In this document: piece by piece, positions 50,328-53,300 of the stretch
Layout: every line of letters begins with the position of its first letter
Numbering within the stretch: position 1 is the stretch's first letter
Source: Paraspadella gotoi
Lineage: Eukaryota > Animalia > Chaetognatha
DNA: 64,000 bases
Reading direction: 5' to 3'
Assembly (NCBI GenBank): GCA_051294375.1
Contig: CM119264.1
Location: 21,795,582 to 21,859,581, forward strand
Made by a program: the position numbers and the translations under genes
The notes under the pieces: generated by a model
Told to the model about the DNA's origin: nothing
The model's database searches: none
Seen by the model: the letters and a program-made list of their open reading frames with translations, nothing else

Positions 50328-53300
50328 TCAATTTCTTTTTGCATCCCTTGGGTAGAACTCGGCCAGCGTCGACTGAGGAATTCGCTTCAACATCTCCTTC
50401 GGGAAGATTCGAAGAAGCTGCCACCCGATATCGAGGGTCTCTTGGATGGTTCGATTTTCGTAGTGACTCTGAAATTTTAATTGAAATTGGTTGACATATA
50501 CCACACCACCGCCACATAATAAACTTTAAGGCAGTCTACGAAAAACTATCATTTCATAACCTGGGAAATAAAGTTTTTCTCGAATTTACTGAGGAATTCA
50601 AGGTAGAGAAGATCCTCAGACGTAAGGGCCTCTTCTCCCACGACGGCCTTCATCGCCTGGACGTCCTTGCCGATGGCATAATTGGCGTAGAGTTGGTTGG
50701 AGACGTCCGAGTGGTCCTTACGGGTCATTCCTGCGTCAAAACGATTAATATGTAGACTACTAGGCTACAAGTGTGGAGAGAGAGAAATACAGAGCGAAAG
50801 TAAGAGTATTGTTAATACCTTCGCCAATAGCGGATTTCATGAGACGAGAAAGGGATGGCAAGACGTTGATGGGAGGATAAACTTGACGATTGTGGAGTTG
50901 ACGATCGACGTAAACTTGACCTTCCGTAATATAACCAGTCAAATCGGGAATGGGATGGGTAATGTCGTCGTTGGGCATAGTGAGGATAGGAATCTGAGTG
51001 ATGGAACCGTTCCGACCTTCCACCCGACCGGCTCGTTCGTAGATCGTCGCCAAATCTGATTAGTAGTTAAACAGAGAGAATGAAGAAATTAAAAGATTTT
51101 AACCATGAGCAACAAAGTCCTGTTCACTTTGCAATCCGCTCACCAGTGTACATGTAACCCGGAAAACCTCTTCGGCCTGGGACTTCTTCTCGTGCTGCCG
51201 AAACCTCTCGGAGAGCTTCGGCATACGAACTCATGTCCGTCAAAATGACGAGCACGTGCTTTTCACACTGAAACAGAAAAAAGGAGAGAGTGTGGCGATA
51301 TATTCACACCGCTTCACGTCCATCATCGTTCAGCCAATCCTATTGGCTCAGAGGGGGAACACACCATCCCAGGCGTTGTGTTCCATCCACAGTCCTAAAG
51401 ACTTTCCTTGGCAAAGCGAGACCGTCCTCGGGTAACCGCGCCAGTGACTGGAGGCTAGAGCGTAGTGAAAGTTACATACGAAAATTCTAAATGTCAATTA
51501 TGAACGGGGGGGGGTTAGGGTAAGGGGTTAGGGTTAGGGCTATATTTATAGACAGTACTATCCTTATAAAATAAAAAACATTCAAAATAGGCTTTTCTTA
51601 ATTTTAATTACAGATTTAAATTCCTCGTCAAAAGTTGGTAAAAGAAAATATAAATAATTTTTAAAAATCTTTTATTAAGTGGGTTAAAAATGAAAAAAAA
51701 ATTTTTTTATATATTTGATCAACTTAATGAACGAATTATTAAAAAAGAGTTATATTTCTTTATATCAACTTTTCATGACGAATCCAAATCTGCAAAAGAA
51801 TCTTATATAAAAAATATTTTGAAATTGTAACAATTATTGGATTAGTAGTAGTATAAATATGGCCTACTGCGTAAATTGTAAAATTTATTATAATATTGTT
51901 TTATAAATAAATGTTCATTAGTATAATGTTGTTCGTTCCTCACTTTTAGAATTTTAATAAAAGTTAAATTTAGTAAAAATTCTCCAGTGGAGGCATCAAT
52001 GAGGGTCGGAAGCCCCTAAAGCCAACAGTAAGATGCCCCATCCCAATGAGCATCACAGCTGTTGCCATAAGTGGAGAATCTGAGTGATGTCTTGGCCTGG
52101 GGATCCTGTGGCGATATATTCACACCGCCTCACGTCCATCATCGTTCACGTTCAGCTAATCCCATTGGCTAAAAGGGGGAACACACCATCCCAGGCATTG
52201 TGTTCCATCCAGAGTCATAACGATTTCCCTCAAAGCGAGACTGTCCTAGGGTAACCGCGCCAGTGACAGGAGGCGTTAGTGAGGGTCGGAAACCCCCAAA
52301 GCCAACAGTCAACAGCCAACAGCCCCATCCCAATGGGCATCACAGGCAACCCGGCTGTTGCCAAAAGGGGCTAAATTTAGGAGTCAAAACAACGGTTTTG
52401 CTTCTATGTCAGAAGAATTCTAAACTATTAAAGCAACATGAAGGACGCAACCTGGTAGGCCAAAAATTCGGCGGTGGTGAGAGCGAGTCGAGGAGTGATG
52501 ATTCTCTCGATGGTCGGATCGTTGGCCAAGTTCAAAAACAAGCAAACGTTCTCCATGGACCCGTGCTCCTCGAAATCTTGCTTAAAGAAGCGGGCAATCT
52601 CCATGTTCACTCCCATGGCTAAAGAGCGCGAATGTGGATAAAAGTTACAATATACATTTCAGTTATACATACTAATACAGTAACAAAACATACACGGAAT
52701 TTTCCATACCGGCAAAAACGATGGCAAAGTTGTCGTTGTGATCGTCCATGACGGAGGAGTGAGCGAGCTTGACGAGACCCGCCTGACGACAAATCTGGGC
52801 GGCGATGTCGTTGTGAGGAAGGCCGGCCGCCGAGAAGATGGGAATCTTTTGACCGCGGGCGATGGAGTTCATCCCGTCAATGGCCGAAATCCCCGTTTGG
52901 ATCATCTCCTCGGGGTAAACTCGAGACCACGGGTTGATTGGCTGACCCTTTGGGATGAAAAGAGAAAGCAAAGCTAAATGAGAAATACAAAAAACGACCG
53001 CGACGAGAATGGACGCGCCTGTATATCCAAAAAATCTTCGGCCAAAACCGATGGGCCCTTGTCGATAGCCTTGCCGGAACCGTTGAAAACGCGACCCAGC
53101 ATGTCTTCTGAGACGGCCATGCGCAAAATATCGCCCGTGAATTCGCAGGTGGTGTGTTTAGCGTCGATGCCCGACGTTCCTTCGAACACCTAACAAGCCA
53201 AGATGAGGAATGAAGAGTGTGAATGTAAATACTTGTGAAAAATGAGAAAAAGAGTTAAAAACCTGAACTATGGCCTTCGATCCGTTGACTTCAAGGATCT

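Follow-up and report, generated by a model that had tools for sequence, protein, structure and literature searches.

An animal LTR-like repeat family appears, from its sequence, to bear a twister ribozyme whose P1 is unusually short and palindromic; this is the firmer result of our analysis. In the 64,000 nucleotides of Paraspadella gotoi DNA that we analysed (the window; all positions are counted from its first letter), two direct copies of the repeat look like the LTR pair of a dispersed family, and each copy is predicted to carry a self-cutting twister with its cut at U/AA.

The repeat pair and its locus

The element consists of the following parts and lies in the intron given last.

51291-52067, plus strand: repeat copy 1, LTR-like, with TG...CA termini, split by a MITE (from alignment and termini)
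51456-51987, no strand assigned: MITE-like insertion, 532 bp, AT-rich, in the P3 loop of the copy 1 twister (twister 1)
52068-52106, plus strand: spacer between the copies, 39 nt, with TGG four bases past copy 1
52107-52363, plus strand: repeat copy 2, 257 nt, with TG...CA termini (from the termini; family contigs diverge before 52107 and behind 52363)
51268-52451, minus strand: host intron, 1184 nt, of a V-type ATPase subunit gene (from translation and splice sites)

In layout, a short non-coding interior lies between two direct repeats, each with fixed TG...CA ends, and copy 1 and copy 2 are 86.6% identical across 171 alignment columns. The original prediction had placed the ribozymes in adjacent repeat units of a concatemer. 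What lies here is instead a pair of repeats of about 260 nt on either side of a spacer, one of them split by the MITE, and an LTR pair with solo copies elsewhere looks likelier than a concatemeric setting. A tandem satellite was likewise rejected, on account of the MITE in copy 1, the 39-nt spacer and the lack of a third copy after copy 2.

In regard to the hallmarks of LTR elements, the TGG in the spacer occupies a PBS-like position, and 3 of 4 bases of a target-site duplication match at this decayed locus. No polypurine tract precedes copy 2; over the final 20 nt before it, purines run for 5 letters at most, and 3 pyrimidines follow that run. A scan for tRNA genes found none here, and both AATAAA/ATTAAA and TATA[A/T]A are absent from the repeats outside the MITE. 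The copy at this locus has probably decayed. Other family members have a longer spacer, to judge from loose contig ends before 52076, and the spacer of this locus has probably been shortened by deletion relative to theirs. In layout the element resembles an LTR retrozyme, and we leave its membership of that class unassigned.

Several further details of the repeats may be worth recording. Past the right end, at 52364-52370, 5 of 7 bases resemble the start of the spacer; the repeat may in truth end in TG...TA, or another, truncated unit may start there, and the right end of the repeat may lie up to two bases beyond 52363. For the spacer and the start of copy 2 (52076-52150), folding predicts a long shared hairpin, which would be compatible with an RNA spanning the junction. 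The motif ATCC[C/T]A occurs three times per repeat, at 51337, 51366 and 52040 in copy 1 and at 52159, 52188 and 52327 in copy 2, and in the predicted fold of copy 2 each occurrence sits at a hairpin loop; a protein-binding or packaging signal is one possible role for it.

The MITE-like insertion is bordered by a 7-bp duplication (51449-51455 and 51988-51994) and has relatives in the window at about 15939-16525 and at 3787-4138. Its site falls exactly within the P3 loop of twister 1, whose 7 nt it duplicates. The core helices and both pseudoknots of twister 1 are all left despite the insertion, and the ribozyme might have survived it. TTAGGG-like telomeric repeats are found within or beside copies of the MITE-like family, at 51511-51539 and 3684-3736.

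The two-copy element is antisense to its host gene, a neighbouring exon of which is matched by Pfam PF00006; to judge from its motifs, this gene probably encodes subunit B. The window is eukaryotic and probably from an invertebrate animal, going by its spliced genes, in which Pfam recognises domains of DJ-1, GNT-I, CUB and ATP synthase. It also contains a 2.3-kb direct duplication of 99% identity (17417-19687 and 22141-24420), which holds a proline/glycine-rich repeat frame that is frame-shifted in the second copy and which is either a recent duplication or an assembly artefact. A tandem gene duplicate of 88.5% identity (34366-35783 and 37241-38666) is presumably dehydrogenase-like.

The twister motif in the family

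Both repeat copies contain the parts of a twister, in copy 2 as one contiguous motif (twister 2) and in copy 1 on either side of the MITE.

51416-51455, plus strand: 5' part of twister 1 (from descriptor match and alignment)
51425-51432, plus strand: P1 linker of copy 1, 2 bp and a CUCG tetraloop, non-palindromic; predicted cut 51433/51434
51988-52025, plus strand: 3' part of twister 1, with the P3 3' strand, P4 and L4 (from sequence)
52235-52297, plus strand: twister 2, in contiguous type-P5 order; predicted cut 52252/52253
52244-52251, plus strand: P1 linker of copy 2, 2 bp and a CUAG tetraloop, or a cross-copy 8-bp self-duplex

The motif was located with descriptors whose columns were taken from Table 1 of PMC8501958 and mapped in type-P5 order. 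The tight descriptor has a single match in the window, at 52235-52297, and matched in 0 of 1000 Markov-shuffled windows, having been tightened after the match was seen; a looser descriptor also finds only this site in the window, yet matches in 9 of 60 shuffles as well. When a long insert in P3 (532 bp) is allowed, twister 1 matches at 51416-52017 and passes the strict pseudoknot test. Rfam twister models gave no match to the copies scanned, which are damaged, whether at the gathering score or with E relaxed to 10, and Rfam scans gave no hammerhead match.

In twister 2 we recognise L1 UAA, L2 GC, a P3 hairpin, P4, a 9-nt L4 and PK1 with its partners swapped, along with defects: PK1 contains a wobble and PK2 a mismatch, and P3 has faults. 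The 5' part of twister 1 runs from the P2 3' strand through the L1 3' strand, the P1 linker and UAA to the P2 5' strand, and ends with PK2, the P3 5' strand and the P3 loop; a P5 of 5 bp is possible in copy 1 between 51408-51412 and 52021-52025, as read from the sequence. The UAA of the cut site (52252-52254) and the GA of the L1 3' strand (52239-52240), with G as general base and A as general acid, are likewise present in copy 1. P2 has 3 of 4 pairs in both copies, with the mismatch adjoining L1, and P4 has 3 of 4 pairs in copy 2 and all 4 in copy 1. PK1 and PK2, which join L4 with L1 and L2, are intact in copy 1 and in most of the family depth. The catalytic residues G and A, as well as the loop letters, agree with all seven published rows or keep pairing. 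On this sequence evidence, we judge the motif to be a real twister, with its strands in type-P5 order.

The wider family was sampled by aligning four of nine listed contig runs to 51990-52380; these runs represent at most three samples and two studies, and one run is possibly the source of the window; 1473-4606 contigs aligned per run, and their depth is not equivalent to copy number. At 52242, 52277, 52279 and 52292, all helix or pseudoknot positions at which copy 2 has a wobble or mismatch, the letter that makes a standard pair accounts for 90-99.7% of the depth in each of the four runs, and the variable positions 52268 and 52272 fall in the P3 loop. Nothing supports the twister more strongly than this independent match between the family letters and the predicted fold.

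The same contigs delimit the repeat. In each of the four runs, 97-140 contigs change behind 52363 to unrelated AT-rich DNA, and in the two runs listed for the other end 46-48 contigs per run do so before 52107. Spacer depth relative to depth at the repeat start is 0.35, 0.50, 0.25 and 0.26 over the four runs, which fits pairs and solo copies better than long arrays. None of the contig pieces listed spans both repeat ends, and unrelated flanks are many. Pattern scans for the family gave 4 matches in metagenome contigs and 7 in viral contigs, all due to chance.

The P1 linker and how the element might be cut

The linkers on which the original prediction was built, UCC-UC-GGG and UCC-UA-GGG, are present at 51425-51432 and 52244-52251, and so is the palindrome CCUAGG of the second unit (52245-52250), whose hexamer CCTAGG occurs only there in the window. 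The accompanying view that P1 within one unit is too tight for a stable hairpin is correct insofar as the hairpin is marginal: compared with no P1 once P2 has formed, it comes to +1.0 kcal/mol in copy 2 and -0.2 kcal/mol in copy 1, and in isolation to +2.1 kcal/mol. The linker can nonetheless be read as 2 bp closed by a tetraloop, and a P1 of 3 bp with a 2-nt loop was dropped as sterically implausible. Both linkers fit cYNMGg, for which we compared them with the YNMG tetraloop class as described in the cited part of PMC2346598, and the Turner table of special tetraloops lists both hexamers.

The length of the linker was compared with phage twisters, for which five pattern scans that sought P1 linkers only to about 18 nt listed 336 loci, with at least 50 distinct cores past the pairing filter. 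Of the 50 distinct type-P5 cores among the phage matches listed, 49 have a linker of 12-18 nt, so that the 8-nt linker found here is exceptional, and the longer phage linkers suggest selection for a stable P1 in the type-P5 permutation. A short-linker scan of prokaryotes returned 13 loci, a count that has no denominator, with one convincing short-linker core among them (L358). This single-copy type-P5 core has perfect P2 and P4 and an unpaired linker of 6 nt, which speaks for cutting as a monomer, but it may be a decayed ribozyme; the other 12 loci are 2 CRISPR spacers, 2 type-P1 twisters, and 8 whose pairing is weak or whose register differs. A phage scan with the PK1 variant of the element gave 34 loci, 0 of them past the pairing filter.

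Two observations from these scans stand apart from the family itself. One single-copy prokaryotic/phage type-P5 core (L155/L257) has an 8-nt P1 linker and possibly a type-P1 partner strand downstream. CRISPR-like arrays in two Clostridia genomes, L350 (about 322-357) and L354 (minus strand, about 1515-1545), each include one spacer that matches a twister ribozyme core and that was presumably acquired from phage.

The palindrome is the usual state of the family. Among the 40 of 66 variant rows that are listed, none changes 52244-52252, and the loop letter of copy 1 makes up less than 3% of depth in four of four runs by bookkeeping from per-run totals; at the two C positions of the linker, C-to-T changes are possible below about 7% of depth. 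The check suggested with the original prediction, whether palindromy is conserved across genomic copies, comes out in favour for the family at large and against for copy 1, and the comparison has little power: because the family is near-uniform over the whole twister, conservation of the palindrome does not demonstrate selection for it.

Pairing between copies is energetically attractive where the palindrome is shared. Bare 10-mers of copy 2 form an 8-bp self-duplex of -11.2 kcal/mol, and a loop-entropy estimate for a cis duplex over about 300 nt gives roughly -5 kcal/mol if both copies are palindromic. A palindromic P1 can thus in principle pair between copies. The 7-bp P1 originally envisaged requires CCUAGGG in unit n. 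Copy 1, however, reads CCUCGGG, and the cross-copy helix of the actual locus has one mismatch and a cis estimate of -0.6 to +0.6 kcal/mol. Because copy 1 is non-palindromic and split by the MITE, the 7-bp P1 is unable to form at this locus, and our model predicts that cross-copy P1 pairing is absent here. In a nested fold of the whole element, computed without pseudoknots on this decayed copy, the twister helices have pair probabilities of at most 0.004 and neither form of P1 gains appreciable probability. With the MITE removed, the stretch from cut to cut (51995-52252) is no more stably folded than its shuffled versions (z -0.5), and copy 2 by itself reaches z -2.2.

Our preferred reading, in which we have about even confidence, is that the locus is a decayed member of a TRIM/LTR-retrozyme-like family whose type-P5 twister likely cuts as a monomer, with strand swapping between copies as an option. 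Cleavage of the monomer would proceed through a 2-bp P1 capped by the cYNMGg tetraloop, and the palindromic P1 would also permit an optional swap of strands between copies. By analogy with the plant LTR retrozymes in the cited part of PMC4918200, read-through or internal transcription would span both repeats. One cut in each repeat would then free a cut-to-cut RNA, which could be ligated into a circle and be reverse-transcribed and integrated by an autonomous LTR element.

Alternatively, the palindrome may gate cleavage within the LTR pair, such that a single copy cuts poorly, a shared 8-bp P1 leads to cutting at both sites, and solo repeats and monomer circles stay largely quiet. Such gating is suggested by the energies (-11.2 kcal/mol for the self-duplex and about -5 in cis against +2.1 for the isolated hairpin), by the prevalence of the palindrome in the family, and by a linker that falls short of those in 49 of the 50 type-P5 cores among the phage matches listed, and it has a precedent in the Penelope hammerhead with its short, palindromic stem III (cited part of PMC6765202). 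We still consider it rather unlikely. In the tested twisters described in the cited parts of PMC11662667 and PMC6154101, P1 is tolerant of change or is termed dispensable, respectively, and the former, in an assay that covers only type-P1 twisters, reports no effect on cleavage from imperfections, length or stability of P1, which leaves the originally proposed dependence of cleavage on cross-copy pairing unsupported; cleavage by P1-less twisters is termed inefficient in the cited part of PMC8501958. Eight nucleotides are enough for a 2-bp stem and a tetraloop, unlike a hairpin with a 2-nt loop, and a monomer fold is available at a cost for the P1 hairpin of at most +1.0 kcal/mol relative to an open linker. 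The contiguous fold would moreover be complete about 45 nt past the cut, long before the next copy is transcribed. Any such hairpin is palindromic when its central dinucleotide is self-complementary (4 of 16); the hatchet palindrome is unnecessary for catalysis according to the cited part of PMC7357161, and no covariation is visible in this near-uniform family.

The remaining explanations concern the element and the motif rather than the role of P1. It seems distinctly unlikely that we are dealing with a rolling-circle repeat resembling non-LTR retrozymes, or one that some other enzyme integrates, in which the monomer would be repeat plus spacer and the locus a truncated ~1.9-mer. Such an origin would suit the absence of both a polypurine tract and an exact target duplication, the similarity that runs past 52363, the predicted pairing of the spacer with the repeat start, and a unit size within the range of animal retrozymes (cited part of PMC7761336), but it sits poorly with the many contigs that start or stop at the same two positions, with a spacer depth at most half that of the repeat, and with TG...CA termini that are shortly followed by TGG. 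We find it very improbable that the motif is merely twister-like, no longer or never catalytic, with an incidental palindrome. The lack of any Rfam twister match with E relaxed to 10, the P2 mismatch beside L1 in both copies and the damage to both copies of the locus point that way; against it, the catalytic residues and the loop letters agree with the seven published rows or keep pairing, most family copies pair better than copy 2, and P2 defects are tolerated in the twisters tested in the cited part of PMC11662667.

Relation to known retrozymes and twisters

Among the closest known systems are the plant LTR retrozymes, which in the cited part of PMC4918200 (Cervera et al. 2016) are likewise non-coding, with a ribozyme in each of two direct repeats that measure a few hundred bases, occur as solo copies as well, and are modelled as giving a cut-to-cut RNA without the R region. 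Those elements combine a type III hammerhead with a PBS for tRNA-Met, a PPT and target duplications of 4 bp. Ours is an animal element with a twister, in which PBS and duplication are candidates and a PPT was looked for and not found. In the papers cited here, LTR-type retrozymes are plant elements that bear hammerheads, and animal retrozymes are without LTR features; according to the cited part of PMC4918200, metazoan hammerhead repeats are without PBS and PPT. Non-LTR retrozymes consist of head-to-tail units of 150-300 nt with a type I hammerhead; our element has a twister, and its spacer is under-represented. The animal TRIMs Helenus and Ajax (PMC10886601) are similar in being short and non-autonomous, with two LTR-like repeats and a short interior, but they contain a PBS, a PPT and sequence derived from tRNA or 5S, whereas our scan found no tRNA gene here. 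Twisters go unmentioned in the main text of both PMC10886601 and bioRxiv 10.64898/2026.07.22.740005, and the results of literature searches, with most subscription journals outside their scope, included no twister in an animal LTR element or TRIM and no dimeric twister.

Among twisters, the motif shares with type-P5 forms the strand order, the UAA cut site, both pseudoknots, P2-P4 and a possible P5, and differs in its 8-nt linker from the 12-18 nt of 49 of 50 phage cores among the matches listed. Its PK1 has GG in L4 and CC or CU in L1, the reverse of the Schistosoma rows in the cited part of PMC8501958. The cited part of PMC10085705 reports that no non-circular twister permutations were found. 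Known retroelement twisters are located at the 5' ends of RTE-clade elements (cited parts of PMC7761336 and PMC8501958). The twisters of Perere-3, an RTE-clade element, resemble ours in being weak-P1 twisters of an animal retroelement; as described in the cited part of PMC8501958, the Perere-3 twister is of type P1 and lies at the 5' end of the element, where the target duplication gives half of P1. Ours lies in the middle of a repeat, its P1 is predicted to be closed, and it has no reverse transcriptase frame next to it. A short-P1 type-P5 form is defined here that Rfam misses.

Strand exchange through a palindrome also has counterparts in other ribozymes. The dimeric hammerheads of Penelope-like elements and of newt satellite 2 share a short palindromic stem beside the cut (cited parts of PMC6765202 and PMC7761336), yet are described there as having no viable stem III, whereas the linker in our element can close 2 bp and a tetraloop. 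In the hatchet ribozyme, which belongs to another class, a palindrome swaps strands between two ribozymes; according to the cited part of PMC7357161, the dimer has been shown and is unneeded for cleavage, and for our element a dimer is only predicted. We consider it unlikely that this family is an animal LTR-type twister retrozyme whose LTR copies share a palindromic P1 and form a strand-swapped double twister that cuts only transcripts of complete elements. If it were, cleavage and circles would come from complete elements alone, solo LTRs in host introns would be harmless, and the family would offer the first natural dimer-gated twister. A palindrome that gates cleavage would further constitute a natural two-copy switch in a ribozyme much used in synthetic biology. 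Compared with the hammerhead-bearing LTR retrozymes of plants, a twister in an animal LTR-like repeat would make the class of ribozyme interchangeable in this life cycle.
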